From assembly GCA_040882645.1 (NCBI GenBank), contig JBBEAX010000085.1, positions 55,933-119,932 of the forward strand: 64,000 bases of DNA, written 5' to 3'. The first letter of the stretch is position 1, and each line of letters starts with the position of its first letter. The stretch is from Acidimicrobiia bacterium (GTDB lineage: Bacteria > Actinomycetota > Acidimicrobiia > Spongiisociales > UBA11373). A program made the position numbers and the translations under genes. Under the pieces are notes generated by a model. It was not told where the DNA came from. It did not search any database and was given only the letters and a program-made list of their open reading frames with translations. Positions 29,153-59,998 of the stretch are shown here, piece after piece.

Positions 29153-30481
29153 TCACGCGGCGGTGAACACCTCCCACTGATCGGGAACGCCCTTGAAGCT
29201 GTGGGTTCCTTTGGTGACCAGTTCCAATCCCGAGCCGGCGACCAGGTCCTTCACCGTTCTCGACACCAGCACCTCGCTCGCGCCGGCGAGAGCCGCCACC
29301 CGCGCGCCGATGTGAACCGCGAGGCCGGCGACATCGGTTCCCAGGATCTCCAGCTCGCCGGTGTGTACGCCGCAGCGCACCTCGATGCCGAGGGGGCTCA
29401 TCGCGGCGACGATGGCTTGGCCGCAGCGAACCGCACGCACCGGCCCGTCGAACCTGGCCAGGAATCCGTCCCCCGTGGTTCCGACCTCGATCCCCCGCCA
29501 TCGAGGGAGCTCGGCTCGGATCACCGCGTTGTGCCGGGCGAGGAGATCCCTCCACACGCGATCGCCCAGGTCGGCGGCCAGACTGGTGGAACCGACGATG
29601 TCGGTGAACAGGACGGTGGAGAGGATTCGCTCGTGCGGGTGCGAGGACCGCTGTCCGGTGACGAACAACTCGATCTCGTCGAGCATCTCGTCGCTGTCGC
29701 CCGCCCAGAACAAGTGATCGCGCCCTGGCAACTCCACCAGCCGGGCTCCCGGTATCTTCGAGGCGATGTAGCGCCCCTCATCGATGCTGACGTCGGCGTC
29801 GCCCTCACGGTACAGGAGCAGTGTCGGTACCCGGATGATGGGCAGAATCGTGGTCACGTCGATCTGCGTGTTCATCCGCAACAGTGCGGCGGCAGCACGG
29901 GGGCTCGCCGACAAGCGAAAGTAGCGCTGCACCCACGCTCGAAAGGCTGGGTCCTGGGCCCGGCTCGGTGCATACACCTCGATCCCTTCGCTCGGGTCCC
30001 CCCACGACTGCTCGATCTCCTCGATGTCGGCCAGGCGCTCCTCCCAGGTCGGCGCCCACGGATAATCGGGGCTCTTGATCCGCTTTGCGTAGGACCCGGT
30101 GAGGATCAGCCCTTCGACCCGTTCGGGGAAAGTCGCGGTGAACAGCACGCACATGTTCCCGCCCTCGGAGTGACCGAACAGCGTTGCCCGTTCCGAGCCG
30201 GCGGCATCCATCACCGCCCGGAGGTCGTCCATTCGCGTCTCCAGGGTGGGAAGCCGGTCGATGGGGACGGGATCCGACAGCCCGGTTCCCCGTTTGTCGA
30301 AGACGATCAGCCGGGCGAAGCCGGCGAGGTGGTCGAGGAATCGGGCGAGCGCCGGGTCTTCCCACATCACCTCGATGTTCGAGACAAAGCCGGGCACGTG
30401 CACGAGATCCCGGGGGCCGTCACCGACGACCTGGTACGCGATGTGGACATCCCCGCTCTTGGCGTAATTGGTCGCTGGCAC
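29153..30481 (-). CDS. alpha/beta-hydrolase domain fused to class III adenylate/guanylate cyclase domain
   Basis: 442 aa. The N-terminal half has a GHSEGG nucleophile elbow. The C-terminal half has VLFTDIVGST, TGDGFLARF, RCGVHTGE and GLAVHIGARV. Confidence 0.8.
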   Translation of the reverse strand: MPATNYAKSGDVHIAYQVVGDGPRDLVHVPGFVSNIEVMWEDPALARFLDHLAGFARLIVFDKRGTGLSDPVPIDRLPTLETRMDDLRAVMDAAGSERATLFGHSEGGNMCVLFTATFPERVEGLILTGSYAKRIKSPDYPWAPTWEERLADIEEIEQSWGDPSEGIEVYAPSRAQDPAFRAWVQRYFRLSASPRAAAALLRMNTQIDVTTILPIIRVPTLLLYREGDADVSIDEGRYIASKIPGARLVELPGRDHLFWAGDSDEMLDEIELFVTGQRSSHPHERILSTVLFTDIVGSTSLAADLGDRVWRDLLARHNAVIRAELPRWRGIEVGTTGDGFLARFDGPVRAVRCGQAIVAAMSPLGIEVRCGVHTGELEILGTDVAGLAVHIGARVAALAGASEVLVSRTVKDLVAGSGLELVTKGTHSFKGVPDQWEVFTAA

Positions 30482-34797: not shown

Positions 34798-35037
34798 CTG
34801 TCAGAAGATCGAGCCTTTCGGGACCCCTTACCCCTCCAAACGGTTGAGAGTCGGCGGTAGCCTCGGGGTGCCGACGAGGTGCCCGGAATCCACGCTACGG
34901 TGTTCAGCGAGGGTTCACGGGGTGCAGCCTGGCGCATTTCCCCCGAACTCCCCGGCATCTGCCCGAGAAGGCGCGAACACCCCGTCGTCACGCCGTCTGG
35001 TGCATATCGGTGCAGCGTCAGAACATTCAGTGCAGTC

Positions 35038-35092
35038 GTGTCGGAGAGAGGACTCGAACCTCCACACCCTTGCGGGCACTAGGCCCTCAACC
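35038..35092. repeat. distal att repeat: orphan 3' half of tRNA-Leu(GAG)
   Basis: gtgtcggagagaggactcgaacctccacacccttgcgggcactaggccctcaacc is identical to 59914-59968. The sequences diverge immediately after (gcgattt vs tagcgcg). Confidence 0.85.
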
Positions 35093-37307: not shown

Positions 37308-37466
37308 TGACAAGCCTTGCATTCTCGCCATGATCTGTTGACACGGAGCGCCGCGGTATTGCCGAGTACCTTTTGTGTCGTGAAAGGGCCACGCACAGAT
37401 CGACCGCAGACCAATCGTGATACCGCTGAACTTGAACGGAAGCGAAGTCTGAGATCGGCGCCACAC

Positions 37467-38403: not shown

Positions 38404-39993
38404 TCAGCGGGGTTTCAGCTGGGGTGAGGGGGGCCGACCTGAGGTACTGCGAACAGCGAAAAGGGGCCTAGGGCCCTCCACGCCTTTGAGTTTGTGCTCT
38501 CCAAGGGCGTCGAACTCGACGAGGTTGACCCCCTCAAGAAGGTCACGGGCCGTGCCAGTCACCACGATCTGATCGGGTTCTGCCGCACTCATCACTCGGT
38601 TTGCGATGTGCACTGCGAGGCCCGAGAGTTCTCCCTGATCCGTCCGATAGCTCCCCGCATGTATTCCGATCCGCAGATGAACGCCGAGCCGATCCGTCAC
38701 GTTGTCCCTTATCGCCCTGGCGCAAGAAATCGCGCTACCCGGTTCAGGAAACGTAGCCAAGAACCCGTCACCGGTCGGCCTTGCGTGTCTCCCGTGGAAA
38801 GACTGGATCTCGCTTGTCACCAGAGCTTGGAATTCCGACAGCACGCCGCTCCACGCGGCGTTGCCAAGACCCGAAACCGCGGGGGTCGAGTCGACTATGT
38901 CGGCGAACATGACAGTCCCCACTTGGTGGCTATCAACCATCGGTGCTGTTCGCATCGGATCGCCGTACATGAGGGATCGCTCCGCCTGCTTCAGGGCGAA
39001 GGACAGGCGCATGGCCGCTTCGGTCTCCATTCCCCGGTCGGGCCGCGTCACGTACTCGATGGGGTCTCGGAGAATCGGCCGAAGACCGCCCTCGGCAAAC
39101 TCGATGCCACCAGCCAGGTGAGGATTCTCAGCCGCTACGCCGCGGAGAAATGACGCAGCCGAGTAAACGCAGGTAGGCAAGTCGATGTTGTAAGCGCCCT
39201 TCGCGGTCTCTTCGCGGCTATCCCTCAGCACCACCTTGTCGTATCGGAGTTGCACGTTGACGTTGCCCTCTAGGTGACTCCCCGTACTTGCGACTCGCTC
39301 AAGGAACTGGCTGGCGAGCCCGTCGAACCCTGGCGGGCTGTACCTCAACATCGACAGGGCTGTCAGACCAAACGCAAGTTCGGCGAGCCCTAGGTTGCGT
39401 TTCGTCTCGAGATATCCAACAAGCCAGGAGGCGGCTCCCTGAATACGTCTTTCGAGATAGAGATTTGGGTCCTTCCGGAAGACGATCAGAGCGGACGCGG
39501 TAGCCAAGAAGGTCGGGTTGTTCTTCAAAGCGTGGTACCGAGAGTCGGGCCAACCCTCAAACCGGCCTGCGGCACCGACTTGGGATGCCTTAAGGTCCTC
39601 GATCCGCTGACGAATCGGCTGACCGCCAAGTGTGACTGTGGATGCCGCCTCCAGCGAGGCGCAGATGCGCGGAATGTCGTCGAGATGCCGTTCCATCGTG
39701 GCCCGTCGATCCGGCGCCCCGGACAACTCGCCGGCGAGATACCTGCGAGCGCCGACCATTTTTCGGCATGCCTCGTCGCTAGCGAGAAGTTCAGCCCCAG
39801 CGAGGTTCTTGAGCGCTATTAGCGCATAGGACGTGCCCCAAAGCCCTGGACCGTCCCCCTGGGATCCTTCCAGAGCCGTCCCCCACGCGTACTCTGTCTC
39901 ATTATCGTCCATCCACTCCCCGCCGTCGATCAGCTTCTCGGTCAACTCCTTCCTGACACCATGGATCACTTCCCAGTCCGCGCGCACGCTCAC
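38404..39993 (-). CDS. two-domain protein: N-terminal helical-repeat (alpha/alpha-toroid-like) domain plus C-terminal class III nucleotidyl cyclase domain
   Basis: 529 aa. The C-terminal ~180 aa has TVMFADIVDST, PTGDGFLATF, LRIGIHAGSY, GLAVHIANRV and KLKGVEGP. The N-terminus has repeated GLWGTSYALIALK / FLATASALIVF / LAFGLTALSML-type helices. Its GTG start overlaps the upstream TGA. Confidence 0.7.
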   Translation of the reverse strand: MSVRADWEVIHGVRKELTEKLIDGGEWMDDNETEYAWGTALEGSQGDGPGLWGTSYALIALKNLAGAELLASDEACRKMVGARRYLAGELSGAPDRRATMERHLDDIPRICASLEAASTVTLGGQPIRQRIEDLKASQVGAAGRFEGWPDSRYHALKNNPTFLATASALIVFRKDPNLYLERRIQGAASWLVGYLETKRNLGLAELAFGLTALSMLRYSPPGFDGLASQFLERVASTGSHLEGNVNVQLRYDKVVLRDSREETAKGAYNIDLPTCVYSAASFLRGVAAENPHLAGGIEFAEGGLRPILRDPIEYVTRPDRGMETEAAMRLSFALKQAERSLMYGDPMRTAPMVDSHQVGTVMFADIVDSTPAVSGLGNAAWSGVLSEFQALVTSEIQSFHGRHARPTGDGFLATFPEPGSAISCARAIRDNVTDRLGVHLRIGIHAGSYRTDQGELSGLAVHIANRVMSAAEPDQIVVTGTARDLLEGVNLVEFDALGEHKLKGVEGPRPLFAVRSTSGRPPSPQLKPR

Positions 39994-40721
39994 GCTGTCG
40001 ATCCTTGAATTTGGAAGCGGGCTACTAGGGCTGAGCGAAGCCGATCAAGCTCCTGTAGCTCGATGGTGTCGAAGATCCGAGATACGTCGCTCCTCGTCCG
40101 CCGCCAACAGAACTCAACCTCGCCGCCAGCTCGAGCCAGGAGACGTCTGAAGTATTGAGGTGTCACATCGCGAGCGGGGGGTTCGGCGAATAGGTACGAC
40201 GACCGATTCCGCCCTAGGTCGCCGAGCAATAGGTAACCGGAGCCCCGGTGCCGGTGCAGAACACTCTTCAGGTCGGGCAATCGCGCAACCTCATAATGGC
40301 TGCTGAAGGCTCGCACTAGGCTCGCTTCACGAGGAATGAGGTGGAGGTGCGCGTGGTCGATGCATGAGGACCTCGCAGCTCCGGACCCACAGTCTCCGTG
40401 CTCGAACACCATGAGCGAAAGCCCGGCCGCCTCATAGAGGTCCCTAGCCCGGTCGACAGCTTCCGCCAGAACCTCGACCTCCATTCCCCCGAGCATCGAA
40501 TCCGCATGCGCCCGGGGTATGAGGAGACAGTGCATCGAGCTAAGTGGGGCGATGTCCGGCAGCAACCGGAACCCGCCCCACTCCGCGAGGACCCGTGACT
40601 TCAATGGCCAGCTGGGGAAACGACGCGCGAAAGCCGATGTCGAATAGTCATTAAACTCGCTGCAGAAATGACACACCCGAGCCTGGCGCTCGGGAGCCGT
40701 TGAGGCACCGATCAGACGCAC
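39990..40721 (-). CDS. HIT (histidine triad) family nucleotide hydrolase/transferase
   Basis: 243 aa from GTG 40721 (GGGAGAGG upstream), one base after the upstream TGA. Histidine triad IDHAHLHLIP. N-terminal CHFC. Confidence 0.7.
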   Translation of the reverse strand: MRLIGASTAPERQARVCHFCSEFNDYSTSAFARRFPSWPLKSRVLAEWGGFRLLPDIAPLSSMHCLLIPRAHADSMLGGMEVEVLAEAVDRARDLYEAAGLSLMVFEHGDCGSGAARSSCIDHAHLHLIPREASLVRAFSSHYEVARLPDLKSVLHRHRGSGYLLLGDLGRNRSSYLFAEPPARDVTPQYFRRLLARAGGEVEFCWRRTRSDVSRIFDTIELQELDRLRSALVARFQIQGSTA

Positions 40722-40722
40722 G

Positions 40723-41784
40723 TCATGTGCCTCTCCCGAGTTGGAGTTCCTCGTCGATTGGCTTCGTCTGGTGATCCCAAACAACGCCCGGAAGTCGAGC
40801 CTCCATAACACCGGCAGCAGACCGGAACCGAACCCCGTCCTCTTGCGGGTGGATCGAACCAAGGCGTTGCACGTTTTCCGCGTCCGGCAGCAGCTCGGAC
40901 ACACTGGCATCCGGCGGCAACGTAAACACCAAACCGAAGTCAGCCGATCCACTGAGGGCAAGCGCGTACGGCGGGATTCCGGCGAGGTCAGCGACGCGCG
41001 CCACGACTGGGTGTGGCTCGAAGAGGGATGCGTCGACAACGGCTCCAACGCCGCTCATCGCGCAGATTTGAGAGACGGTCGCCTTAATGCCGTCAGAATT
41101 GTCCTGCGCTGCGATCCTCCAACCGGACGCCGCGAGCCCTTTCCCCACTTCAAGCTGCGGTCGCGGACGCCGCCAAGACTCCGCTAAAGCCATCTCCATG
41201 GAGCTTGGGAGGGAACCGAGTCGATCCTTGTTCCTAAAGTAGAGCACTGCCGCTCCAGCGAGTCCTGCGTCCCCCACGTAGAAGAGTTGGTCGCCCGGGA
41301 GACCATTTCGGCGCAGCAATGGTTGCGACGCAGTGAATCCGACGGCAGTCCCTGAGAGGACAAGCCGAGAGAATCCTCCGATGTCGCCGCCAACCACGGA
41401 TCCGGAGAACTCGTCGGCAGCTTCACGAATACCCAGGCATATCTCGACGAAGTCGGCGTCCGACAAATCGTCTGGGAAGCGGATATTCGTTGTCACGAAG
41501 CGCAGTTCGGCTCCCATCGCAGCCACATCGCTGGCGTTCGCGGCTACCAGGAAGTACCCCAGGTCGCGATACGACAGAATGCGGAGCTGGAACAGGTAGA
41601 ACTCCGCACCGCGGATGAAGTCGCTGCCCACCACTAAGTGTCCGCCTGGAATGGCGATAACCGCGCAGTCGTCTAGGGCGGTAACCCCTTCCACGAGCCG
41701 CAACGGCCCCTTGATGTCACGGCCGCGAGAGTCGTCGCCGAAAATGTCGGCGACGATCTTGAGAAACCCTGCCTCAGAACTCAT
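40723..41784 (-). CDS. PurM/ThiL-superfamily ATP-dependent enzyme (AIR-synthase-related, ThiL-like)
   Basis: 353 aa. Has the blocks ALDDCAVIAIPGGHLVVGSDF, AANASDVAAMGA and AAQDNSDGIKATV. These correspond to ThiL/PurM N- and C-domain signatures (DDAAV, TTD, DxSDGL). Confidence 0.65.
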   Translation of the reverse strand: MSSEAGFLKIVADIFGDDSRGRDIKGPLRLVEGVTALDDCAVIAIPGGHLVVGSDFIRGAEFYLFQLRILSYRDLGYFLVAANASDVAAMGAELRFVTTNIRFPDDLSDADFVEICLGIREAADEFSGSVVGGDIGGFSRLVLSGTAVGFTASQPLLRRNGLPGDQLFYVGDAGLAGAAVLYFRNKDRLGSLPSSMEMALAESWRRPRPQLEVGKGLAASGWRIAAQDNSDGIKATVSQICAMSGVGAVVDASLFEPHPVVARVADLAGIPPYALALSGSADFGLVFTLPPDASVSELLPDAENVQRLGSIHPQEDGVRFRSAAGVMEARLPGVVWDHQTKPIDEELQLGRGT

Positions 41785-41890
41785 CGGTGGCCTCGCTGCG
41801 GGCGGCGCGCGTCGACTAGCGAATACCTCTTATCGCCAAGGAGGTGAGTTCGCCTTGAGGAGGCGTCGTGGAGGTCGCTGTTGTTCCGAC

Positions 41891-41918
41891 TAGTGAATGA
41901 CATTATTGTAATCATAGG
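41891..41918. promoter_or_regulatory. AT-rich patch in the divergent control region; candidate -10 elements on both strands
   Basis: tagtgaatgacattattgtaatcatagg. The minus strand reads ...TACAAT..., about 110 nt upstream of the ThiL-like start. The plus strand has TGTAAT/CATTAT. It is the only strongly AT-rich stretch in the 450-bp spacer. Confidence 0.3.
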
Positions 41919-42234
41919 CTTGGGCTGCCCCGGGAGCGTACACGCCACTCGCAATTGCCGTGGCGCTCAAGCCCCACTAGGTCTCGCACCCACTGCACCG
42001 TGCTGTCCGATGCTCGGCGATCCCGTGTTCCCTCAACAGCGAGTCTGACCGCACCCGAGTCTTCACGCGGCGCATCGCGGTGCCGCTCTGTGCGTCAGGC
42101 TGCCGCTTCGTGCGCGGGACGTCTGCTGCTCTCGCGTGCTCGAGGTGCTTGCGGGGTGCCACGGAAACGCCGTTGGGTTTCGGCCTGATCCTTGCGGGTG
42201 CGACGGGTACTGTCGCGCCACTCAACCGATCCCC

Positions 42235-45200
42235 ATGACCCGACAGTCACAACCCAGGACCATGAAGCATCTCGCAAGCACAATGACTGGCTTGCGCGAC
42301 CACCTAATCGTGGCTTCGGCAAGCCTGCAGTTGATCCCCAAGAACGCCACGAAGTGGGCGAGGTTCGAGAGACTCCTTGAACTCGCCTCATCGCTGCGAC
42401 CCGAAGATGTCCCCAAGCGAATGCCCAAGAACCTGCTGCGGAAACTCCTCACGTCGTCCCCCATAGCGACGCCCCAGATCATCTCTGGTGAAGTCCCCTT
42501 TGAGGAGCCCTTCGTGACGGTGATCACTTTCTTCGGGGGCAGCTACCGGGTCGTCTCAGGAGGGGCTTCAGCAGCAAGCGTTGGCTGCCAGCTGCTACTC
42601 GACGCAAGCCGCCTTCTTCCGGACGACGACGAGTCCACTGAGTTCAGGGAGCGGTTGTTCCTGGATGCCGAGATCGCTCTGAAGCTCTCTGATGCAGTGT
42701 GCGAGAGGGCTGGCCTCGGACGGTGGATGTCGCCGTCTCTCTCGCCCAAGTCCGAGGTGGTTATCCCGGCCAGTTCTGAGTTCGACCGCCTCGGCAAGGC
42801 CGTGACGTTCTCGCCGGACGACCTGGGTCGAGTGCTCGGAACTGCAGCAGAGTTCGTCGATGTGCTCATGGCCTCGGGACGGTTGGACTTGGTCGATCAT
42901 GACCAAAAGGGGCCGACCGATGATCGGATCTACCTATATCCGTTGGTTCGGACCTCGAGCGGCGATGTGATTGTGGCTCTCCCGAGCGGGCTCGCCGGAT
43001 CAATCATGCACCGAGGGTTGGCGCGAGCGGTTGAGCTGGGAATCGAGGAGAGGGTGGTCAATTCGCTCCACCGCGCGACGCAGATGTCACTTCGCCGCGC
43101 CTTCGCGCGAGTTCGTTGGTCGCGGGTTCAGGGTCCCAAGACGCTAGACAAGCCGGCCAACTTCCAGGAGACGTTCTATCGCTTCGATCTCGACAAGGTG
43201 GCGCATGTCGTTACAGTCATAGATCGTCTCGACGACTACGTCCCAGGTGAACCATTTGGCCATGCGGACTTCTCGTCGGTGCAAACCGAACTGCATCAGA
43301 GGTTTCCCGAGATCCGTTCGGCCGTCCGCTCACAGTCACCTGAGGTGTCGGTTCTTCATGTGGTGTGCAGTGCGCCCCTCGGCCGATCCCACTTCATGGG
43401 GTTCGAAGACACCTCTAGCGATGACACATCGGCCCTCCTCGCTGCGAGCTTGGACGACATCGATCTCATCGCCCGACTCGAGAAGTCCGATCGCCTGGCA
43501 CTGTGGAAGTTCGCTCTCGCTTCTAAGGAGCTCCACCGGCGGTCGCGCGTCTTGTCCTTCTCCACGTTCGACGAGTACGCCATCTACCGAGATCACGGTC
43601 ACAGCTACTACACGAGTGACGATCGTCACCCAACCTTCGTGTCAGTCCAACCCGGTTCCGGGGGCGACTTGAGAGTGAACGAACGCCAACGCATAGACCT
43701 TCACGCAGTTCCCCTGCCAGAGGGTGGGAACGTTGTTGAGGTGACTCGGTGGGCCGCCGACGATGCCACGCCCGTGTACCAACCCGACATGCCGGAGTTC
43801 CACCCGTATCACCGGGTCGAACTGCAGGTGCCTTGCTGGGTGATCCCCTCCCCAGAGGTGGCAGAGGAGGAGAGGCTGAGTGAGAAGTTCGCTGAGGCGA
43901 TCGCGTTCTGGCTCTGGCGCTGCGAGTCGCTTGTTGGATCCGCACTGGATCGGCTGTCCGGACGGTGGGAGAAGCTGATCGCAACAGTACGGGTTACCGA
44001 GCAGCGCCACGACCCGAGCGGGGATTCGGAACTGCACCCGGTGGCCGAATGGCTGCAGGTCGAACTTCGACCCTCGGAAGGTCGAGTGGACTTCCTGATC
44101 GCGGAGACCGCCAGGTACCGGTTGGCGCGCCCGGACAACGAAGCCGAGAGGGAGATCGCCATAGCGCTAGTCGAGGCAATCCATGACTTAGCAGGCGAGC
44201 GGCCAACGGGCCTGCGAGCACAGGTGAAACAGGCGATCCCAATCGGCGAGATGAGAATGATCCAGGTCCTGGACGAACGTGACGACGCTCTTCTGACGCT
44301 AGGTGAGATAGCTGAGCCACGACTCCTCCCGGACGCTGACGTGGAACTGCTGCTTGACTCACTCGGCGAATTCGCGTCGAGCGATCTGGGCCTTGCACAG
44401 GGCCCCATTCCATCAACTGGCCGGACTCAGGTACTGAATTCGATCGTGGAAGAGTTGTCCGATCAGCTCATGTCGGAGCTATCGGGGATAGAGCCGGACG
44501 GTCTCCTCGAGTACCTCACAGGAGAGAGAGAAGCTCTCCTCTTCTTGGAGGCGAGGGGTCGACTCACGCTCCCATCACTGGTTGCTTGCTTCGGTGAGCA
44601 ATCGTCCGGGGCACGAGAAGCGGTGGAGTCAGCGCAAGCGCTCGTTTCCACATCGGTGGCAAACCGCTATCTGCTGGAGGCCGCCACTGCGCGTCCCCCC
44701 GCAGGCGAGCGGCAGATGACGCTGAGCGTCTATGACCACCTGCTAGCCCTTGCCAACCAGATCATCCAATACGGGTTCATGAGCGACGCCATCCGGCACG
44801 AGCTGTCCTCCGTGGAGTTGTCAATCCTGCCTTCGGGGAGACTTGGGTCTAGCCGTGAAGAGCCGTACCTGGAAGCACTAGCGGCGTTTCGCGATATGAC
44901 CAAGAGCCGAGCCGTTAGTCATGCGCGTGAACGGTACGCAGCGCATTGGGGAGAACGAGATGAAGAGCCGATCGATTTCGACCCGACCGAAGTCGACGAG
45001 GCGTACCACCAGGAATTCGGTATCAGTGCAACTGATCTTGCCCACCTCACTGGCGATCTTGTCGAGCTAGCGCGGTCTGAGCGGTACCAAGTCGCGACTC
45101 GGGCGCTCGATGACCTCGGAAGTGAGCTGTGCAAGTCCCTGGGGTGGTCACGGGATCGTGTTCGCAGCGGGCTTCAACTGCTCTCATTGGATGAAGTCGC

Positions 45201-45981
45201 GGAATTTCCACGAGTCGCGAACCGGGCAGACGTCTACCCATGGCGTTACGGACGCAATCGCTCCGCTGCCCGGCGTCCGCTGTGCGTCCGCAGTAACCCA
45301 GCGGGTGATCTCGAAGCTGTTTGGGGAGCACGCGGCACGTACCGATCCGCCGGCTACCTGGTTGATCAAGTGAGATCGGGTCGGCTCAACGCGAAGTCGC
45401 GCGCTATGAAGCGGTACATCACATCGGTACGCCAAGCCGGCAACGACGCTTTCAGGGGCGATGTCGCTGAGTTCTTCAGGGGGCTTGGCTACAGCGATGT
45501 CCGAGAGGACGTGAAGAAGTTTGGCCAATTCCGGCTACGTCGACCCAACGGAGAGGATCTCGGCGACGTGGATGTCTTGGTCATCGACCGGGCGCGGAAG
45601 GTACTGCTCGCGACCGAGGTGAAGGACTTCGAGTTCGCGCGAACGCCCGCCGAGCTCAGCCATGAACTCGACAAGCTGCTCGACGGGCCGCGATCAGCCG
45701 CCCACCACCATGGGGAGCGACTCGACGCAATCAAGCGGGACCTACCCCGCTTGTTGGAAGGGCTCGATGCATCGGACTCGGACGAAGACTGGGAAGTCCG
45801 CGGTCTGATAGTCACTAGTGCTGACCTGATTACCAGCCGATTCCCGAAGGCGCAGAGGCTAAGCCACGGGTTGACAGTGACGCCGTATGAGTTGCTGCAG
45901 AACAAGGGCCAAGGGGAGCTGACAGGCAGTGCGAGCAAGTCGACCGCCACGAAGAAGCGGAAAGGTCGCCGCCGCCGGTAG
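42235..45981 (+). CDS. ~1,250-aa orphan protein with C-terminal PD-(D/E)xK-like nuclease motif and basic tail
   Basis: Track ORF 42136..45981. ATG 42235 (or 42262) is the likeliest start, but there is no strong RBS. C-terminus: GDVDVLVIDRARKVLLATEVKD (D...E-x-K). It ends with KKRKGRRRR. I saw no P-loop or helicase motifs. Confidence 0.55.
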   Translation: MTRQSQPRTMKHLASTMTGLRDHLIVASASLQLIPKNATKWARFERLLELASSLRPEDVPKRMPKNLLRKLLTSSPIATPQIISGEVPFEEPFVTVITFFGGSYRVVSGGASAASVGCQLLLDASRLLPDDDESTEFRERLFLDAEIALKLSDAVCERAGLGRWMSPSLSPKSEVVIPASSEFDRLGKAVTFSPDDLGRVLGTAAEFVDVLMASGRLDLVDHDQKGPTDDRIYLYPLVRTSSGDVIVALPSGLAGSIMHRGLARAVELGIEERVVNSLHRATQMSLRRAFARVRWSRVQGPKTLDKPANFQETFYRFDLDKVAHVVTVIDRLDDYVPGEPFGHADFSSVQTELHQRFPEIRSAVRSQSPEVSVLHVVCSAPLGRSHFMGFEDTSSDDTSALLAASLDDIDLIARLEKSDRLALWKFALASKELHRRSRVLSFSTFDEYAIYRDHGHSYYTSDDRHPTFVSVQPGSGGDLRVNERQRIDLHAVPLPEGGNVVEVTRWAADDATPVYQPDMPEFHPYHRVELQVPCWVIPSPEVAEEERLSEKFAEAIAFWLWRCESLVGSALDRLSGRWEKLIATVRVTEQRHDPSGDSELHPVAEWLQVELRPSEGRVDFLIAETARYRLARPDNEAEREIAIALVEAIHDLAGERPTGLRAQVKQAIPIGEMRMIQVLDERDDALLTLGEIAEPRLLPDADVELLLDSLGEFASSDLGLAQGPIPSTGRTQVLNSIVEELSDQLMSELSGIEPDGLLEYLTGEREALLFLEARGRLTLPSLVACFGEQSSGAREAVESAQALVSTSVANRYLLEAATARPPAGERQMTLSVYDHLLALANQIIQYGFMSDAIRHELSSVELSILPSGRLGSSREEPYLEALAAFRDMTKSRAVSHARERYAAHWGERDEEPIDFDPTEVDEAYHQEFGISATDLAHLTGDLVELARSERYQVATRALDDLGSELCKSLGWSRDRVRSGLQLLSLDEVAEFPRVANRADVYPWRYGRNRSAARRPLCVRSNPAGDLEAVWGARGTYRSAGYLVDQVRSGRLNAKSRAMKRYITSVRQAGNDAFRGDVAEFFRGLGYSDVREDVKKFGQFRLRRPNGEDLGDVDVLVIDRARKVLLATEVKDFEFARTPAELSHELDKLLDGPRSAAHHHGERLDAIKRDLPRLLEGLDASDSDEDWEVRGLIVTSADLITSRFPKAQRLSHGLTVTPYELLQNKGQGELTGSASKSTATKKRKGRRRR

Positions 45982-50866: not shown

Positions 50867-52048
50867 TCAGGACACGACGCGTAGCCTCGACGGCGGCGGA
50901 AGGGGCGGCGAATCGGCTGAGTGAATGGCGTCTGAGACGCGGGTGACGGCATCGGCTTGGAGGCTGGGGATCACGTGGCTGTAGGTGTCAAGGGTGATGC
51001 TGATGCTGGCGTGGCCGAGCTGTTCGGAGACCACCTTGGGATTCACGCCTTCTTGGAGCGCGATGGTCGCCCAGGTGTGCCGCAGGTCGTGGAGCCGTAT
51101 ACGGCGTAGTCCTGCCTGCTCGCAGATGCGTCGGAATTGATTGGTGACCCGGTCAGGGCGCAGCGGGCCACCGTCCGGGTGAGCGAACACCAGCTGCCGT
51201 GCCGTCTCGTTGGCGTGTGAGCGGAGGTCGGCAAGCACGGCGATAGTGCGGTCGTCGAGGTAGACCCTTCGGGCTGAGCGCCGTGTCTTGGGTGACCCGA
51301 TCACCGGGTTGCCTCTCTGGAGGACGACGGTTTGGGTGATGGCGAGCCATCCCGCTTCGAGATTGACGTCGCTCCAGCGGATTCCGAGGATCTCGCTGCG
51401 GCGCATCCCCGTAGTCCCCGCCAGACGCCAAAGCGCTTCACGTTCGTCGCCCTCGACCACGCTCAGAAAGGCGCGGACCTCATGGGGTTGCCACGGGTCC
51501 TGGACCTTGGGGCCTACAGATGTCGACGGGGGCGAGGCCGAAGCCGCCGGGTTGTCGCGCAGCAGACCCCACCGCACCGCGTCCCCGAACGCTCGGCGGA
51601 GCACCACATGGGCGTTGCGGATCGTCTTGGGTGCCAGCGGCCCACCTGACCGTGAGCCCCGGTCGGCGAGAATGGCATACAACTGGTTGATGTCACGGGG
51701 ACCGACCTGCTGAAGCCGCATCACCCCGATGTGAGGCACGATGTGGCACTCGATCGCCGACCGATACGAGTCGACAGTGTTCCCCCGTACTACCCGAGCA
51801 TGATTCGAAAGCCACTCCCCCAGCAGGAAGTCCCCCACTGTGATCAGGCTGCGGTCGACCCGGGACCCGGACTCTAACTCGACGAGCTCCCCACGGAGCG
51901 CAGCCTCGGCCTCCCGTTTCGTCGTAAACCCCCGCCGGGTCTTCCGAGCCCGTCTGCCAGTCGCCAGATCGCCGCCGACCTCGATGACGTAACCCCACGA
52001 CACACCCGACTTGGTACCACGACCCGACACGTGCCCCGAGTAAGTCAT
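50867..52048 (-). CDS. tyrosine-type site-specific integrase
   Basis: 393 aa from ATG 52048, with AAGGAG 9 nt upstream. C-terminal catalytic region: RLHDLRHTWATIALQEGVNPKVVSEQLGHASISITLDTYSHV (R...HxxR...Y). Confidence 0.9.
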   Translation of the reverse strand: MTYSGHVSGRGTKSGVSWGYVIEVGGDLATGRRARKTRRGFTTKREAEAALRGELVELESGSRVDRSLITVGDFLLGEWLSNHARVVRGNTVDSYRSAIECHIVPHIGVMRLQQVGPRDINQLYAILADRGSRSGGPLAPKTIRNAHVVLRRAFGDAVRWGLLRDNPAASASPPSTSVGPKVQDPWQPHEVRAFLSVVEGDEREALWRLAGTTGMRRSEILGIRWSDVNLEAGWLAITQTVVLQRGNPVIGSPKTRRSARRVYLDDRTIAVLADLRSHANETARQLVFAHPDGGPLRPDRVTNQFRRICEQAGLRRIRLHDLRHTWATIALQEGVNPKVVSEQLGHASISITLDTYSHVIPSLQADAVTRVSDAIHSADSPPLPPPSRLRVVS

Positions 52049-52256
52049 GCCGCCCCGCTCCTTGGCGGACAGACTCCCGGGTGTCGGGACCGTCGATGCG
52101 ACGCTGACGCTATCACACCATATTTTACCAGGGGGGGTCTTGACGAACAAGCCGAGCTGTGGCCGTTAGAGCTGATGGATCTGGGGGGTCCGGGCTGGGT
52201 TTCCTCCGATGCCGCGTGCGGGTGCGATGGAAGCGTTGGAGGCGATTGAAGGGTTG

Positions 52257-54034: not shown

Positions 54035-57000
54035 TTGGGTAAGGTCCCGGGGGTTGCATTTCTCGGTCGAGACTTGGAGGCGACCGCGTTGGGCCGTGAC
54101 ACGAGGATAGACAACCCGATTCTGAACTCGCCGTTCGACGCGCCAACTCGGCATTTCAGGTTCGACGACGAAGGGATCACTTCCGAAAAGGTCGACGGCC
54201 GAAGACCCTCCTCCTACTTCGTGCCGATTCCGGCGACCAAGAAGAAGAAGGGCCAGGCGGCATTCGACACTGAGTGGACTGCCGACCGGGTCGAACCCAA
54301 TCCGACTATTAACCGTATTCGCGAGCGAGTTGACATGTGGCGGCAGGGGGGATGGCCACATGTCACTCCAACCTCCCGCCGCCTTCTCGAGTACTGGACC
54401 GACCCGGAACGCGAACGCAAGTTGTTCCATGCGCAGGTGGAGGCGTTGGAAACCGCCATCTACATAGCCGAAGTTGCCACCAAAGTTGGCGACGCCTGGA
54501 TTCCCAACATGCTCGCTGAGGCGTCGGCGAACGCCAACCCTGGCGTATCTCGGCTGTCGCACAAAATGGCGACTGGGTCGGGCAAGACGGTGGTGATGGT
54601 GATGCTGATCGCGTGGCAGACGCTGAATAAGGCGGCGTCGCCCCAGGACGCTCGATTCACGGACCGATTTCTGGTGGTCACTCCGGGGATCACGATCCGC
54701 GATCGCCTTCGAGTGATCCTGCCTTCCGACCCGAACAACTACTACCGAGAGCGCGACGTCGTGCCGCCAGAACTGCGTGAGCATCTCGGTCGCGCCCGAA
54801 TCGTCATTACTAACTTCCACGCCTTCCAACTGCGTGCCAAGCAGCAACTGTCGAAGATCCACAAGGCCCTGGTACCCGAGGGAGCCTTTGTCGAGTCGCC
54901 TGATGAGATGGTGCGTCGGGTCACCCGTGAATTGGGGTCGTCGTCGAAGCAGATCGTGGTGCTCAACGACGAGGCGCACCATTGCTACCGAAGCAAACCC
55001 GACTCCTTGCCCGACGAACCCAAGTTGGTAGGTGACGACCGCAAGGAGGCCGAAACCCGGGAGAAGGAAGCCCGTGTGTGGCTTTCCGGGCTGGAGGCGG
55101 TGCAGGCGAAAATCGGAATCAAGGCCGTCTACGACTTGTCGGCCACGCCCTTCTTCCTCCGCGGTTCCGGCTATCCGGAGGGCACGTTGTTCCCCTGGGT
55201 TGTATCGGACTTTTCGCTCATCGACGCAATTGAGGCCGGTGTGGTGAAGGTCCCACGGGTGCCGGTAGCCGACGACCAGATGACTGGCGACGGTGTCGCC
55301 TACCGCGATCTGTGGTTGCGCATTCGTGACCACCTTCCAAAGAAGGGCCGCAAGGCCTCGGACACCGAGACCCCGGTCATGCCCCCTGAGCTCGACGGTG
55401 CGCTCCACAGCCTCTACTCGGACTACAAGAAGCGTCATCGCCTTTGGGAGAAGTCTGAGGCACGCCAACACGACGGGTCGACCCCCCCGGTGTTCATTGT
55501 GGTTTGCAACAACACCGCGGTGTCGAAGATGGTCTACGACTGGATCGCGGGCCGTGAGGTGCCTGGACCCGACGGAACGGCGGTCGTCCAGTCCGGCGAG
55601 TTGAAGATCTTTTCTAACGCCGACCGGGGCGAGTGGTTGCACCGCCCCAACACGATCCTCATCGACTCCAAACAGTTGGAGTCGGGTGAGGCGATGTCGG
55701 CCGAGTTCAAGGCAGTCGCGGCTCTCGAAATCGGGGAGTTCAAGCGGGAGATGCGCCAGCGCTTCCCCGGCAGCGACCCGGACGCCGTCAGTGACGAGGA
55801 CCTGTTGCGCGAGGTCATGAACACCGTCGGTAAGCCGGGGCGCCTCGGCGAGCACGTGAAGTGCGTGGTGTCTGTGTCGATGCTCACCGAAGGCTGGGAC
55901 GCCAACACCGTTACGCACATCCTGGGCGTGCGGGCGTTCTCAACTCAGTTGCTCTGCGAGCAGGTGATCGGTCGCGGCCTGCGGCGCCGCTCCTATACCC
56001 TCAACGACCACGGACACTTCGACCCGGAGTATGCCGAGGTGTACGGAGTGCCCTTCTCGTTCATCCCTGCGGCCGGCCAGACCAAGGAGATCACTCCCGG
56101 CCCGATGCCGACACGGGTGCGAGCCCTGCCCGACCGGGCCGACCGGGCGATCACCTTTCCCCGAGTGATCGGATACCGGTACCGGCTTGCCGGTGAGCGC
56201 CTCGCAGCCACCTTCGGCCCCGAACACCAGATCACCCTGTCGGCCCGGGATGTGCCCACCAAGGTAGAGGTGGCGGGAATCGTCGGGGAGACCGGCATCC
56301 ACGAACTCGATGATCTCAAGGAGTGGCGGATGCAGCAGGTGGAGTTCGCCATTGCCCGCCGGCTGGCGATGCGGTACTTCCGCGCCGAGAGCGATGCCGA
56401 CAAGCCTTGGCTGTTCCCTCAGTTGCTCCGGATCGTGCGGGAGTGGATCGGGTCGGCGGTACACCTTGCCGACGGTGCATTCCTGCAAATGCTGCGCATC
56501 GGCCGTTACGAGTCGGATGCGCTCGACAAGATCTACCGCGCGATCGCTGCCTCTGACGATGGCGACTTACTAGTCGAGGCCGTCCTCCAGCCGGGCGACG
56601 CCACCGGGACCACCGCCTTCGTCGACTTCGACACCACGAAGCCGGTCTACGCCACCGACGCTGCGAAGTCGCACGTGTCGCACGTCGTTGGCGACTCCGG
56701 CTGGGAGCACAAGATGGCCCAGGTACTCGAAGCGATGGCTGAGGTGGACCGTTACGTGAAGAACCAAGGCCTTGGTTTCGCCATCCCCTACACCATTGAC
56801 GGACAGCAGCGGTCCTATGTGCCCGACTTCATCGCCGTTCTCGACGGTGACCTTCACCTGGTGGTTGAAGTGTCTGGCGAGAACCGACGAGATAAAGAGG
56901 CCAAGGTGAGCACGGCGCGGGAGCTGTGGGTGCCGGCGGTGAACCGCCATGGCGGGTTCGGCCGATGGGGATTCGTCGAGGTCACTGACCCGTGGGACGC

Positions 57001-57046
57001 TGAAGGCACCATACGAGGCACACTTGCTGTGGCACAGGGGGGTTGA
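54035..57046 (+). CDS. res: Type III restriction enzyme, Res subunit (SF2 helicase plus C-terminal endonuclease)
   Basis: 1003 aa. Walker A MATGSGKTVVMVML, DEAH box VLNDEAHHCY, TEGWDANTVTHILG, and C-terminal YVPDFIAVLDG...VVEVSGENRRDKEAK (PD...ExK-like). Confidence 0.8.
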   Translation: MGKVPGVAFLGRDLEATALGRDTRIDNPILNSPFDAPTRHFRFDDEGITSEKVDGRRPSSYFVPIPATKKKKGQAAFDTEWTADRVEPNPTINRIRERVDMWRQGGWPHVTPTSRRLLEYWTDPERERKLFHAQVEALETAIYIAEVATKVGDAWIPNMLAEASANANPGVSRLSHKMATGSGKTVVMVMLIAWQTLNKAASPQDARFTDRFLVVTPGITIRDRLRVILPSDPNNYYRERDVVPPELREHLGRARIVITNFHAFQLRAKQQLSKIHKALVPEGAFVESPDEMVRRVTRELGSSSKQIVVLNDEAHHCYRSKPDSLPDEPKLVGDDRKEAETREKEARVWLSGLEAVQAKIGIKAVYDLSATPFFLRGSGYPEGTLFPWVVSDFSLIDAIEAGVVKVPRVPVADDQMTGDGVAYRDLWLRIRDHLPKKGRKASDTETPVMPPELDGALHSLYSDYKKRHRLWEKSEARQHDGSTPPVFIVVCNNTAVSKMVYDWIAGREVPGPDGTAVVQSGELKIFSNADRGEWLHRPNTILIDSKQLESGEAMSAEFKAVAALEIGEFKREMRQRFPGSDPDAVSDEDLLREVMNTVGKPGRLGEHVKCVVSVSMLTEGWDANTVTHILGVRAFSTQLLCEQVIGRGLRRRSYTLNDHGHFDPEYAEVYGVPFSFIPAAGQTKEITPGPMPTRVRALPDRADRAITFPRVIGYRYRLAGERLAATFGPEHQITLSARDVPTKVEVAGIVGETGIHELDDLKEWRMQQVEFAIARRLAMRYFRAESDADKPWLFPQLLRIVREWIGSAVHLADGAFLQMLRIGRYESDALDKIYRAIAASDDGDLLVEAVLQPGDATGTTAFVDFDTTKPVYATDAAKSHVSHVVGDSGWEHKMAQVLEAMAEVDRYVKNQGLGFAIPYTIDGQQRSYVPDFIAVLDGDLHLVVEVSGENRRDKEAKVSTARELWVPAVNRHGGFGRWGFVEVTDPWDAEGTIRGTLAVAQGG

Positions 57047-59661
57047 TGATGGCGAAGGCATCGGGTAGTAAGAAGACTCCCAAGCAGGTCGAGACCCTCC
57101 GGCACGGCGACACTCGCTCCAACATCCCAACCTCCGAACTCGCTGACTTCGCCTCCGACCACGAGAAGAACCCACCCAAGATGCTGTACCCGCGCGACTC
57201 CTCTCTCGACCCACAGTTGGTTTGGCAAGGCAAGGATGAGCAGGATGCCCGCGACCTAGAGGTTCCCGTGGTCCCGATCTATATCCAGGAGAAGATCGAA
57301 CCCAAGGTCATCATCGACGATCTCCGCCGCGATTCCTCCCAGCGCGAGCCCGAGATGAGCCTGTTTGGGGACTTCGATGGCGTCGAACCCGAGCACGTTC
57401 TTGACTTCTACAACCACGGCGCCAACTGGTCGAACCGCATGATCCTCGGCGGCTCGTTGCTGGTAATGGCGAGCCTCGCTGAGAAGGAGAACCTGCGCGG
57501 CAAGGTTCAGATGATCTACATCGACCCGCCCTACGGCATCAAGTTCGGCTCCAACTGGCAGGTCAGCACCCGCAAGCGCAACGTAAAAGACGGGAAGGAC
57601 ACTGACCTCGTGCGCCAGCCCGAACAGGTGAAGGCGTTCCGCGACACCTGGGAGAAGGGGATCCACTCCTACCTTGCCTACTTGCGCGACCGGTTCGTGG
57701 CGGCGCGGGAGTTGCTTACTGAGTCGGGAAGCGTGTTCGTCCAGATCGGTGACGAGAACGTCCACCTCGTGCGCAGCCTGATGGATGAGGTGTTCGGGAG
57801 CGAGAACTTCGTGAGCCAGATCACCTTTCGGACGTCAGTGCCGCTTCGCTCAACGGGCCTGGCCGGTATCGCGGACTTCGTCCTTTGGTATGGAAAGGAC
57901 CAATCATCAACGAAGTATCGCGACCTTTTCACTGATCGGGAGCTCGGGCAGGGCACTGTCTATACCTCAGTTCAGGAGCCAGGCGGCGTCCGACGGAAGA
58001 TGACGAAGGAGGAGCGTCTCGACCCTTCGCGCGTCCCCCCCGGCTCCCGGATCTACTGCACAGAAAACCTCGTCTCGAGCGGGTACACGCCGACCTGCAT
58101 CTACCCGTTCGAGTTCAATGGTCGGAAGTTCGCTCCAACCTCGGGGAAAAGCTGGAAGACTAACCGAGCCGGGATGGAGTCCCTTGCTGCCAGGGGGCGT
58201 CTTGATGCGTCTGGAGCCACGCTTCGCTATGTGCTCTTTGCGGATGACTACCCCGTTATGAAACTCACCAATCTCTGGACAGATACGAAAGGTGAGGCTG
58301 ATAAGAGCTACGTGGTGCAAACCAACACCAAGATCATCCAGCGCTGCATGCTCATGACCACCGACCCTGGCGACCTCGTCCTCGACCCCACCTGCGGATC
58401 CGGCACCACCTCCTTCGTCGCCGAGCAGTGGGGTCGGCGTTGGATCACCATCGACACCTCCCGAGTGGCGATCGCTCTCGCCCGCACCCGCCTGATGTCT
58501 GGTCGCTTCCTCTACTACCTGCTCGCTGACTCTTCGGAGGGTCGGATGCAGGAGGCCAAGCTCACGGGCATCCCGCCCGCCGACTCTCCCACCGGCAGCG
58601 ACATCAAGCAGGGATTCGTCTACAAGCAGGTATCCCACGTCACCCTCAAGTCGATCGCCGACAACCCGGATATCCGCGAAGGCATGACGCGCGAGGAGAT
58701 CGACGGCGCCATCGCCCGCCACGCCGATCAGGAAATCCTTGTCGATCAACCCTACGAGGACACCAAGAAGGTGCGGGTTACCGGGCGGTTCACGGTCGAA
58801 TCTCTTTCCCCCCACCGTGTGCTCGACCCCGAGACCGCTGAGCGCACCGCCGCGGAGGTGGCGGCGGAGCTGGACCCATCCCGAGAGGGTTACGTGCCGA
58901 TGATTCTCTCGAACTTGCGTAAGGCCGGTGTGCAGAATCGGGTGAAGAAGGAACGACTGGTGTTCGCCACTCTCGAACCCCATGCCGGCCAGTGGCTCCA
59001 AGGCGCAGCCACTTACGTTGACGCCGCGGGCGAAACCAAGCGGGTCGCGATCTCGGTCGGGCCGGAGCATGGGACGGTTGGATCGATGCAGGTGAAGGAG
59101 GCCGCCAAGGAGGCGGTGAAGGGTGTCGGATTCGACGTGCTGATCGTCTGCGGGTTCGCCTTCGACGTCAGCGTCGACCAGATGATCGGCGACTTCGGCC
59201 CGCTCACCATCCTCCCCGCTCGCATGAACCCCGACCTGGCGATGGGTGACGAACTTCTTAAGAAGACCGGCGCCGGCAACCTGTTCATGGTGTTCGGCGA
59301 ACCCGATATCAACATGAAGACCACCAAGGAAGGCGTGGTCGTCGAAGTGAGGGGCATCGATGTCTACGACCCGACCACCGGTGAGATTCGCTCGGACTCG
59401 GTGGATGACATCGCGGTGTGGTTCATTGATACCGACTACAACGAAGAGTCCTTCTTCGTTCGCCACGCCTACTTCACCGGCGCCGATGAACCCTACAAAC
59501 GTCTCAAGAAGTCCCTGAAAGCCGAGATCGACGAGGAGGCTTGGGCGACCCTCTACAGCACCGAGAGCCGCCCATTCCCCAAGCCCTCGACCGGCAAGAT
59601 CGCCGTCAAGGTCATCAACCACTACGGCGACGAAGTGATGAAGGTCTACGACGTCGAGTGA
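57043..59661 (+). CDS. mod: Type III-like DNA methyltransferase, Mod subunit (beta-class N6A/N4C)
   Basis: 872 aa. Motif IV IYIDPPYGIKF precedes motif I VLDPTCGSGTTSFVAEQWGRRWI. 4-nt overlap with res. Confidence 0.8.
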   Translation: MMMAKASGSKKTPKQVETLRHGDTRSNIPTSELADFASDHEKNPPKMLYPRDSSLDPQLVWQGKDEQDARDLEVPVVPIYIQEKIEPKVIIDDLRRDSSQREPEMSLFGDFDGVEPEHVLDFYNHGANWSNRMILGGSLLVMASLAEKENLRGKVQMIYIDPPYGIKFGSNWQVSTRKRNVKDGKDTDLVRQPEQVKAFRDTWEKGIHSYLAYLRDRFVAARELLTESGSVFVQIGDENVHLVRSLMDEVFGSENFVSQITFRTSVPLRSTGLAGIADFVLWYGKDQSSTKYRDLFTDRELGQGTVYTSVQEPGGVRRKMTKEERLDPSRVPPGSRIYCTENLVSSGYTPTCIYPFEFNGRKFAPTSGKSWKTNRAGMESLAARGRLDASGATLRYVLFADDYPVMKLTNLWTDTKGEADKSYVVQTNTKIIQRCMLMTTDPGDLVLDPTCGSGTTSFVAEQWGRRWITIDTSRVAIALARTRLMSGRFLYYLLADSSEGRMQEAKLTGIPPADSPTGSDIKQGFVYKQVSHVTLKSIADNPDIREGMTREEIDGAIARHADQEILVDQPYEDTKKVRVTGRFTVESLSPHRVLDPETAERTAAEVAAELDPSREGYVPMILSNLRKAGVQNRVKKERLVFATLEPHAGQWLQGAATYVDAAGETKRVAISVGPEHGTVGSMQVKEAAKEAVKGVGFDVLIVCGFAFDVSVDQMIGDFGPLTILPARMNPDLAMGDELLKKTGAGNLFMVFGEPDINMKTTKEGVVVEVRGIDVYDPTTGEIRSDSVDDIAVWFIDTDYNEESFFVRHAYFTGADEPYKRLKKSLKAEIDEEAWATLYSTESRPFPKPSTGKIAVKVINHYGDEVMKVYDVE

Positions 59662-59913: not shown

Positions 59914-59998
<85 letters not shown>

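Follow-up and report, generated by a model that had tools for sequence, protein, structure and literature searches.

A conserved pair of a ThiL-like and a histidine-triad enzyme, translationally coupled to a helical–cyclase fusion protein on a tRNA-Leu-integrated island of an Acidimicrobiia bacterium

Enzymes of the AIRS (PurM), histidine-triad (HIT), and class III nucleotidyl cyclase superfamilies are each well known: PurM/AIRS relatives of ThiL catalyze the ATP-dependent phosphorylation of a phosphate or carbonyl oxygen, and the natural substrate of ThiL contains a 4-amino-5-hydroxymethyl-pyrimidine, which is chemically near modified cytosines. HIT enzymes, whose superfamily takes in GalT and CDP-diacylglycerol hydrolase, cleave phosphoanhydride or phosphoramidate bonds of nucleotides and split off or transfer nucleoside-monophosphate (NMP) groups through a covalent His-NMP intermediate. 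Class III cyclases also occur in Pycsar, where PycC is combined with an effector activated by a cyclic nucleotide (cNMP), and prokaryotic viperins (pVip), reportedly treated by Bernheim et al. in 2021, are said to have adjacent NMP kinases. We know of no AIRS or HIT enzyme at the core of a nucleotide-analogue or nucleotide-depletion defense, and the association of a ThiL-like enzyme with the HIT enzyme that we call HIT-L is undescribed in the literature searched. Here we analyze this association in a 64,000-nucleotide stretch of the 250-kb contig JBBEAX010000085.1 (the whole stretch is referred to as the window), part of the metagenome-assembled genome (MAG) of an Acidimicrobiia bacterium, in which three abutting open reading frames (ORFs) on the minus strand at 40723..41784, 39990..40721, and 38404..39993 encode a ThiL-like enzyme (gene 1), HIT-L (gene 2), and a helical domain fused to a class III cyclase domain (gene 3). 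The first two genes form a pair that is conserved across many loci.

The three genes follow one another without a gap to speak of. Gene 1 ends in GGC ACA TGA, and the GTG of gene 2 (40721) lies one base further, giving a TGA-c-GTG junction in which the start codon is preceded by GGGAGAGG. Gene 2 in turn ends in GCG TGA, and its stop codon overlaps the GTG of gene 3 as GTGA at 39990-39993; the same 243-aa product for gene 2 was called independently in the Logan collection (P0121). A preliminary description of the window, drawn from its letters, had pointed out these overlapping ORFs and had assigned their products to the ThiL/PurM-like, HIT, and class III cyclase families. The junctions are as it described them, and Pfam and PDB matches bear out all three assignments. 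Genes 1 to 3 are a genuine, translationally coupled three-gene operon on an island integrated at a tRNA-Leu gene. The intergenic region at 41785..42135 (no strand), which lies between the operon and a divergently oriented Upx-like gene, is presumed from its position to hold the promoter; a sigma-70 consensus was looked for there and not found, and the promoter and terminator scan was uninformative.

For the comparison across genomes, 160 loci were gathered from genome and metagenome collections through an alignment of the ThiL-like subfamily, together with the neighborhoods of subfamily members, and scanned with custom hidden Markov models. Loci scoring 310 bits or more with the subfamily profile were counted as ThiL-like subfamily loci (n = 68), and those at or below 292 bits as ordinary ThiL loci (n = 98). 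A HIT-L gene is found no more than 5 kb from the ThiL-like gene at 61 of the 68 subfamily loci, and at 45 of the 48 for which both flanks are present, but at only 2 of the 98 ordinary ThiL loci. This difference in linkage (61/68 versus 2/98) marks the ThiL-like/HIT-L pair as a conserved functional unit. No relatives were found in the viral contigs searched. The three genes had earlier been proposed to act as an enzyme triad: conservation over more than 60 loci holds for the pair, whereas the cyclase occurs in the window only (1 of 68). The neighborhood search suggested at that time shows, moreover, that the three-gene order of ThiL-like, HIT-L, and helical protein recurs in two other contigs, both metagenomic (L002 and L165), in exactly this order and with overlapping stop and start codons. 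The overlaps in L002 are GTGA and ATGA, and its proteins are 55% (ThiL-like), 41% (HIT-L), and 28% (helical) identical to those of the window; the L165 triad is located on an incomplete contig. Because order and overlaps recur in L002 and L165, the gene arrangement is more than chance. The L002 triad is the closest relative of the window operon. Directly upstream of it and co-oriented with it lie (L002:136-2133) the gene of a 637-aa dCTP-deaminase defense protein (PADLOC dCTPase, 1.7e-94) and a 78-aa ORF, the latter without a counterpart in the window.

The partners that surround the conserved pair vary. The main form, found in Streptomyces, Micromonospora, Amycolatopsis, Lentzea, Actinomadura, and Nocardia, associates the pair with a 255-aa membrane protein (39 loci), an S-adenosylmethionine (SAM) methyltransferase (39), a small HIT protein resembling Ap4A phosphorylase and HinT (36), and a CMP-kinase-like protein (31); the commonest arrangement is a six-gene cluster that includes the CMP-kinase-like, SAM methyltransferase, and second HIT genes. 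The 255-aa protein consists of one or more N-terminal transmembrane segments and a conserved soluble domain of about 170 residues with the motifs GVGVVGLCW and AVFASPIRN...GCVSVDA. Its family (alignment A6; L022:11027-11794 and 30 other loci) always adjoins the ThiL-like/HIT-L pair in actinobacteria, and no relative of it was found in Pfam, NCBIfam, or PDB, even at E = 10; a GAF-like character of the soluble part, considered at first, is thus unsupported. In a minor form of about ten loci, a helical protein with homology to the N-terminal part of gene 3 takes the place of these partners. Other third partners are kinases related to APH and TCAD9, a metallophosphoesterase, and a WD40 protein, with TCAD9-like kinase and WD40 neighbors at L035 and L014. 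The window operon has neither the kinase nor the methyltransferase nor the second HIT of the commonest form.

Gene 1 (40723..41784, minus strand) encodes a predicted ATP-dependent phosphotransferase of 353 residues, which was classified with Pfam, TIGR01379, and a PDB profile search. With 65.1 bits against Pfam AIRS (cut-off 24) and 32.1 bits against AIRS_C (cut-off 23.1) it belongs to the PurM/AIRS superfamily, whose invariant Asp/Gly blocks are retained in the gene 1 subfamily. Its score of 160 bits against the thiL model TIGR01379 lies under the equivalog cut-off of 184.15 and thus outside the ThiL equivalog family, and the structures nearest to the subfamily profile in the PDB are those of ThiL (3e-41). 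Homologues of gene 1 share 38-55% identity, stem mostly from Actinomycetota, and are set apart from ordinary ThiL. No thiamine genes were found in the window or in the 68 related loci. Judged by its sequence, gene 1 is a member of a distinct subfamily and not a thiL equivalog. The protein is named thiamine-phosphate kinase at NCBI and its closest solved relatives are ThiL structures, as would be expected of an ordinary housekeeping thiL that lies beside two unrelated genes by chance. This explanation is scarcely credible in view of the score under the equivalog cut-off, the gap that separates the subfamily (at least 310 bits) from the other loci (at most 292), an almost constant tie to HIT-L and never to thiamine genes, and the position of gene 1 on an integrated island. 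In two MAGs of Patescibacteria/Saccharibacteria (L030 and L040), ThiL-like genes in the score range of the subfamily are surrounded by housekeeping genes (ATP synthase; DNA ligase, HD, Ham1) and have no HIT-L in their vicinity, so that subfamily membership alone does not always imply the module.

Gene 2 (39990..40721, minus strand) encodes HIT-L, a histidine-triad enzyme identified by Pfam HIT, the family alignment, and a PDB profile search. It scores 23.8 bits against Pfam HIT (cut-off 21.5), carries both CHFC and HAHLHLIP, and is a member of the HIT superfamily. The architecture of HIT-L comprises an N-terminal CxxC, a core with the pattern FEHG...C.DHAHLHLIP, and a conserved C-terminal extension of about 100 residues (PQYFRR, W); HAHLHLIP is invariant in the family, as are H72, E107-H108-G109, H123/H125/H127, Q189, and R192. 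Against the PDB, the family profile finds HINT structures at about 1e-8 and the C-terminal region of CWF19L1 at 2e-6, and the C-terminal extension searched alone finds no PDB relative. Gene 2 matches no NCBIfam or PADLOC model, and HIT-L is rare, with two distant matches. A distant HIT-L homologue is encoded on a Parabacteroides distasonis plasmid (L168; NZ_OY725790.1, 156377-161663) in an operon that runs from a long ThyX-like thymidylate synthase through a 670-aa AAA ATPase, the distant HIT-L, and a small hypothetical protein to a dihydrofolate reductase (DHFR), and that looks like a modified-pyrimidine pathway. Another is encoded on pRL1 of Rhizobium leguminosarum (L169, 64-11329) within a co-directional cluster of 12 genes, among them genes for an inositol-1-P-synthase-like protein, a GFO/IDH/MocA oxidoreductase, TMP-kinase-like and PRPP-synthetase-like proteins, a PfkB kinase, an aminotransferase, nucleoside-phosphorylase-like and methyltransferase-like proteins, and a PhyH dioxygenase; the cluster probably encodes the pathway of a metabolite of nucleoside or inosamine type.

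These distant homologues bear on a metabolic explanation of the operon: The pair would build, salvage, or detoxify a nucleoside- or nucleotide-type metabolite, such as a modified pyrimidine or a thiamine-like compound, and would have no immune role; the helical-cyclase protein would regulate the pathway through cAMP, and the island would carry the operon as incidental cargo. A small nucleoside pathway had been named at the outset as the main alternative to defense, and it gains support from the CMP-kinase-like and methyltransferase partners and from the ThyX/DHFR and nucleoside-cluster neighbors of the HIT-L relatives. Moreover, the six-gene form appears biosynthetic, its position is syntenic within genera, cyclodipeptide synthases, transporters of the major facilitator superfamily, and short-chain dehydrogenases are found among the flanks, and the pyrimidine in the ThiL substrate, with its closeness to modified cytosines, may provide a chemical link to this system. 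The window version, however, lacks not only the kinase, the methyltransferase, and the second HIT but also any enzyme obviously suited to build a scaffold. Both of its closest relatives and the L003 locus stand amid defense genes, and the interchangeable membrane, kinase, and cyclase partners resemble the swapping of effectors or sensors more than the tailoring of a pathway. We regard purely specialized metabolism as possible, though rather unlikely.

The N-terminal part of gene 3 (38959..39993, minus strand) is an all-helical domain of about 345 residues that carries the motifs WG..L.G...GTS and GW and whose family profile is weakly related to alpha/alpha toroids of the squalene-cyclase type. 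Pfam holds no match for the N-terminal 350 residues or so, and the domain is a near-orphan: an exhaustive HMMER search returned one real homologue among 1.84 billion representatives. A further candidate relative, P0245, was rejected as a spurious repeat match, and a word-based search yielded predominantly matches to the cyclase domain when full-length gene 3 served as the query. The helical family was compiled from the neighbors of the ThiL-like gene, which yielded a nine-member alignment. Relatives beside the pair (L019, L023, L006/L166, L017, L086, L096, and L099) are 390-450 residues long and have the motifs WGQ.LD...GTS and G-W in common with the N-terminus of gene 3. They normally end in two strongly hydrophobic, presumably transmembrane, helices or in nothing further; the window protein and that of L002 have no such helices. 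The family profile matches the C-domain of squalene-hopene cyclase (SQHop_cyclase_C; structures 7XQ4 and 8ZG0) at E = 2e-4, which lends weak support to the toroid resemblance that had already been called weak. No conserved acidic column or DxDD-type motif was found in the nine-member alignment, where only G38, G50, G53, W148, and T165 are invariant, and the helical domain is probably non-catalytic.

A toroid-like protein with two transmembrane helices is what one would look for in an envelope or isoprenoid-phosphate pathway, in which the ThiL-like enzyme would turn a lipid or sugar monophosphate into the diphosphate, HIT-L would act in the manner of GalT or CDP-diacylglycerol hydrolase, its superfamily relatives, on a CDP- or NDP-linked intermediate, and the membrane-anchored toroid protein would bind a prenyl carrier. 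The Promicromonospora locus, which is embedded in cell-wall genes for dTDP-rhamnose, LytR-CpsA-Psr, and glycosyltransferase functions, and the Microbacterium and L167 loci with their glycosyltransferase or ABC-2 neighbors are consistent with such a pathway, in which the CMP kinase would recycle CMP. That the operon serves this purpose is nevertheless quite improbable: A membrane anchor is missing from the versions in the window and in L002, the surroundings of most loci are free of envelope genes, the toroid lacks a conserved catalytic motif, and, to our knowledge, no AIRS-family enzyme acts on a prenyl phosphate.

The C-terminal part of gene 3 (38455..38928, minus strand) is a class III nucleotidyl cyclase domain of the LipJ/Rv1900c type, as identified by Pfam, NCBIfam LipJ, and 1YBT. 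Residues 356-504 score 33.4 bits against Pfam Guanylate_cyc (cut-off 21.9), which places the domain within class III, the NCBIfam LipJ model gives 127 bits over the cyclase part, and the best PDB match is Rv1900c/LipJ (1YBT, 4e-31). The metal-binding aspartates of FADIVDST and GDGF align with those of 1YBT, the RIGIHAG block is present, and a histidine stands four residues ahead of the conserved arginine, as in Rv1900c. With the HIT triad likewise retained, a check for misassigned catalytic residues in the cyclase and in HIT-L came out in favor of the assignments made before. At the positions that usually govern base specificity, gene 3 has Arg/Glu; the corresponding residues are Asn/Asp in Rv1900c, and the first of them is Lys in Ma1120. 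The pairs used for comparison were Lys/Asp of adenylyl cyclases and Glu/Cys-Ser of guanylyl cyclases. An ordinary LipJ-like fusion of alpha/beta-hydrolase and cyclase is also encoded in the window outside the island (29153..30481, minus strand). It is 36% identical to the gene 3 cyclase, which in turn shows up to 52% identity to LipJ-type proteins in the database, and a recent copy from this gene was consequently rejected as the source of the domain.

The intact catalytic residues, the translational coupling of the three genes, the bond-cleaving capacity of HIT enzymes toward nucleotides, and the setting on a defense island could all be reconciled with a Pycsar-like system in which the cyclase would make an infection signal and the ThiL-like and HIT enzymes would modify, amplify, or degrade this messenger. 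Yet none of the other 67 ThiL-like subfamily loci has the cyclase, and the conserved enzymes therefore cannot depend on its product. In addition, gene 3 does not match the PycC model of PADLOC, the domain groups with LipJ-type hydrolase-cyclase fusions of a housekeeping kind, and no cNMP-binding effector is adjacent among the island ORFs scanned. The view of the cyclase as part of a conserved signal system of the Pycsar type was thus not upheld, as the domain is of the LipJ/Rv1900c and not of the PycC type and is confined to the window; we see only a slim chance for this explanation.

We tentatively prefer a composite reading, which we consider plausible while stopping short of calling it probable: a ThiL-like/HIT-L core that acts on a nucleotide-type molecule, a helical output partner, and a probable conflict role at this locus. 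The ThiL-like enzyme would phosphorylate, at the expense of ATP, a phosphate ester or carbonyl group on a nucleotide-like molecule, and HIT-L would transfer or remove an NMP moiety, such that the pair would make, convert, or destroy a phosphorylated nucleotide-like molecule. The CMP-kinase-like, methyltransferase, small HIT, dCTP-deaminase, ThyX/DHFR, and TMP-kinase-like neighbors make a phosphorylated small molecule, either a nucleotide or nucleotide-like and probably of the pyrimidine type, the most likely substrate of the pair. The toroid-like protein would bind the product or the trigger and convert the state of the core into an output: In the relatives, the two transmembrane helices suggest an action at the membrane, and in the window, where these helices are replaced by a LipJ/Rv1900c-type cyclase, the output would be the synthesis of a cyclic nucleotide. 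The role at this locus is probably one in conflict, either phage defense or the production of an antiviral or antimetabolite nucleotide; this role is proposed because mobile and defense genes accompany the window copy as well as the two relatives closest to it. The setting of the window would fit a conflict role, with att repeats, an integrase, a Type III restriction-modification (R-M) system, and the Upx-like gene, and in L003 the module is flanked by genes for a PglX/MmeI-like enzyme, a NERD-kinase, and PycTM; defense neighbors are present at the window, L002, and L003. Moreover, the exchange of membrane, kinase, and cyclase partners around a fixed core would be a pattern typical of conflict systems.

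Several observations weigh against this composite reading. In the family as a whole, no clear enrichment beside defense genes emerged from the flanks of 40 loci, which were evaluated by summary counts on crude ORF calls: strong PADLOC matches were obtained for only a handful of 116 flanking proteins, and the commonest Pfam families were regulators, transporters, dehydrogenases, and cyclodipeptide synthases. Some loci, such as that of Promicromonospora with its surrounding cell-wall genes, lie in rhamnose/cell-wall polysaccharide or transporter regions, and the synteny within Amycolatopsis, Lentzea, Nocardia, and Streptomyces is unlike that of typical fast-moving defense cassettes. The absence of the module from the viral contigs searched likewise speaks against a conflict role. 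The defense role proposed earlier is accordingly backed by the local mobile island with its defense genes but not by a family-wide enrichment. As to gene 3, the cyclase fusion is a single observation on one MAG contig, its Arg/Glu pair leaves the cyclase substrate unreadable, no cNMP-binding effector was found beside the operon among the island ORFs scanned, and the toroid assignment rests on a 24-bit profile match across two helical repeats with the G-W motif. AlphaFold2 models of gene 3 (from a single homologue) and of HIT-L (from two homologues) reached mean confidence (pLDDT) values of 39.5 and 51.3, respectively, too poor for fold comparison.

The island that carries the operon is recognizable from a drop in GC content from about 0.66 to 0.615 between roughly 34 and 60 kb of the window, and from a 113-nt direct repeat (34980-35092 and 59856-59968) in which 55 nt match the 3' part of tRNA-Leu exactly. 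This repeat bounds an integrated low-GC island of about 25 kb. The right boundary is the integration site, a tRNA-Leu(GAG) gene (59914..59998, minus strand) identified by ARAGORN and Rfam, and the left boundary is the distal copy of its 3' end (34980..35092, no strand), recognized by the direct repeat (D2) and the GC drop. The tRNA island inferred previously is hence an integrated element bounded by a tRNA-Leu 3'-end copy, but it involves only one tRNA gene: no other was found in the window, and Rfam gave nothing on the island except this tRNA. A tyrosine integrase (50867..52150, minus strand; Pfam Phage_integrase, Phage_int_SAM_3, and Arm-DNA-bind_4) is encoded mid-island, and the Type III R-M genes res and mod (54035..59661), whose presence had been noted before and is confirmed by domain matches, lie between the integrase and tRNA-Leu. 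The mid-island position of the integrase suggests two tandem elements or an internal rearrangement.

Divergent to the operon and outside it lies the gene of a 1281-aa protein (42136..45981, plus strand), described at first as a giant protein with nuclease motifs and identified here as a distant relative of Upx (PADLOC Upx, 1.8e-29; NCBIfam Upx_antiphage, 121 bits against a cut-off of 1900, with the match covering only the C-terminal half). It is followed by a co-oriented gene for a YaaC-like protein (46114-47376), and the two may represent a divergent Upx-type system with an accessory gene. The island cargo further includes a DUF429 gene and a UDG-superfamily gene, the latter just downstream of gene 3 (37317-38012, plus strand). 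An 86-aa ORF, likewise just downstream of gene 3 (38056-38316, minus strand), has no family match and no counterpart beside related operons. The first gene of the island (35344-36960, minus strand) has a 538-aa product that combines a lipase-like alpha/beta-hydrolase core with RTX calcium-binding repeats at the C-terminus. A direct repeat of about 340 nt (36957-37286 and 47632-47960, 90% identical) brackets 10.7 kb that contain the UDG-like gene, the 86-aa ORF, the operon, and the Upx-like and YaaC-like genes. Both copies lie just upstream of a plus-strand ORF; the repeat has no Rfam match, no RNA-structure signal (z = 0.01), and no third copy in the window, and could mark the edge of a cassette or be the scar of a recombination event.

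Should the two enzymes indeed function as a unit, they constitute an unstudied partnership of an AIRS-superfamily kinase with a histidine-triad nucleotidyl enzyme, present in at least 60 loci, mostly of Actinomycetota including Streptomyces, Micromonospora, Amycolatopsis, and Nocardia, where the genes at present bear the erroneous annotations "thiamine-phosphate kinase" and "hypothetical protein". It would stand either for a new nucleotide-based conflict or immune chemistry or for a new nucleoside antimetabolite pathway in antibiotic producers. We place the operon with nucleotide-processing operons that carry exchangeable, effector-like partners and reside on mobile islands. The fusion of toroid and cyclase can be viewed as a natural experiment which suggests a signal-transducing role for the helical partner, with an output that can be exchanged, and it offers a tractable system because cAMP or another cNMP can report what the helical domain senses. 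A bolder proposal, which we hold to be unlikely as it stands, is that the pair forms the core of an unrecognized family of modular conflict systems that make or use up an unusual phosphorylated nucleotide, for example of a pyrophosphorylated or dinucleoside-polyphosphate type. This molecule would be read by a partner with two transmembrane helices, a toroid protein with two such helices, a kinase-like protein, or the toroid-cyclase protein, the last of which would relay it as a cyclic nucleotide. If true, this would be the first case of a PurM/AIRS enzyme and a HIT enzyme as an immune signaling core, and the first two-tier nucleotide relay of such a kind.

The preliminary description had known of no described system with this enzyme triad, and the searches made here agree: all three operon proteins gave zero matches in PADLOC-DB 2.0.0, and no description of the ThiL-like/HIT-L module was found in the literature searched, including a paper from the Aravind laboratory. 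Part by part, the closest comparisons are as follows. ThiL (PDB 5DD7 and 3C9T) is the closest solved relative of gene 1 and shares with it the signature of the two-domain AIRS fold and the conserved Asp/Gly blocks for nucleotide and metal binding; gene 1 differs in falling under the equivalog cut-off, in belonging to a separate subfamily tied to a HIT gene instead of thiamine genes, and in being island-borne. HIT-L has the CxxC and HxHxHxx motifs and the HIT core in common with hydrolases of the HINT/Fhit type and with the C-terminal HIT-like region of CwfJ/CWF19L1, whereas it carries FEHG where an N.G...GQ loop is usual, as well as its extension of about 100 residues that has no solved relative. 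Toward the toroids of class II terpene (squalene-hopene) cyclases and prenyltransferases (7XQ4 and 8ZG0), the helical family shows a profile match over two helical repeats, of only 24 bits and without their conserved DxDD-type motif. The cyclase domain is about 45-50% similar to Rv1900c/LipJ (1YBT) and Ma1120 over the whole catalytic domain and has both metal-binding aspartates and the His...Arg spacing; unlike in Rv1900c/LipJ, its N-terminal partner is toroid-like and helical instead of an alpha/beta hydrolase or thioesterase, and the specificity positions are Arg/Glu. With Pycsar, the operon shares a class III cyclase fold within a defense-rich island, but it has no PycC match and no cNMP-binding effector, and its cyclase is not conserved in the family. 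From pVip and the nucleotide-depletion defenses, finally, the ThiL-like/HIT-L module is set apart by having no radical-SAM enzyme, and it resembles pVip with its NMP kinases and the dCTP deaminases in combining nucleotide-modifying enzymes with CMP-kinase-like genes and, in L002, in standing directly behind a dCTP-deaminase gene.

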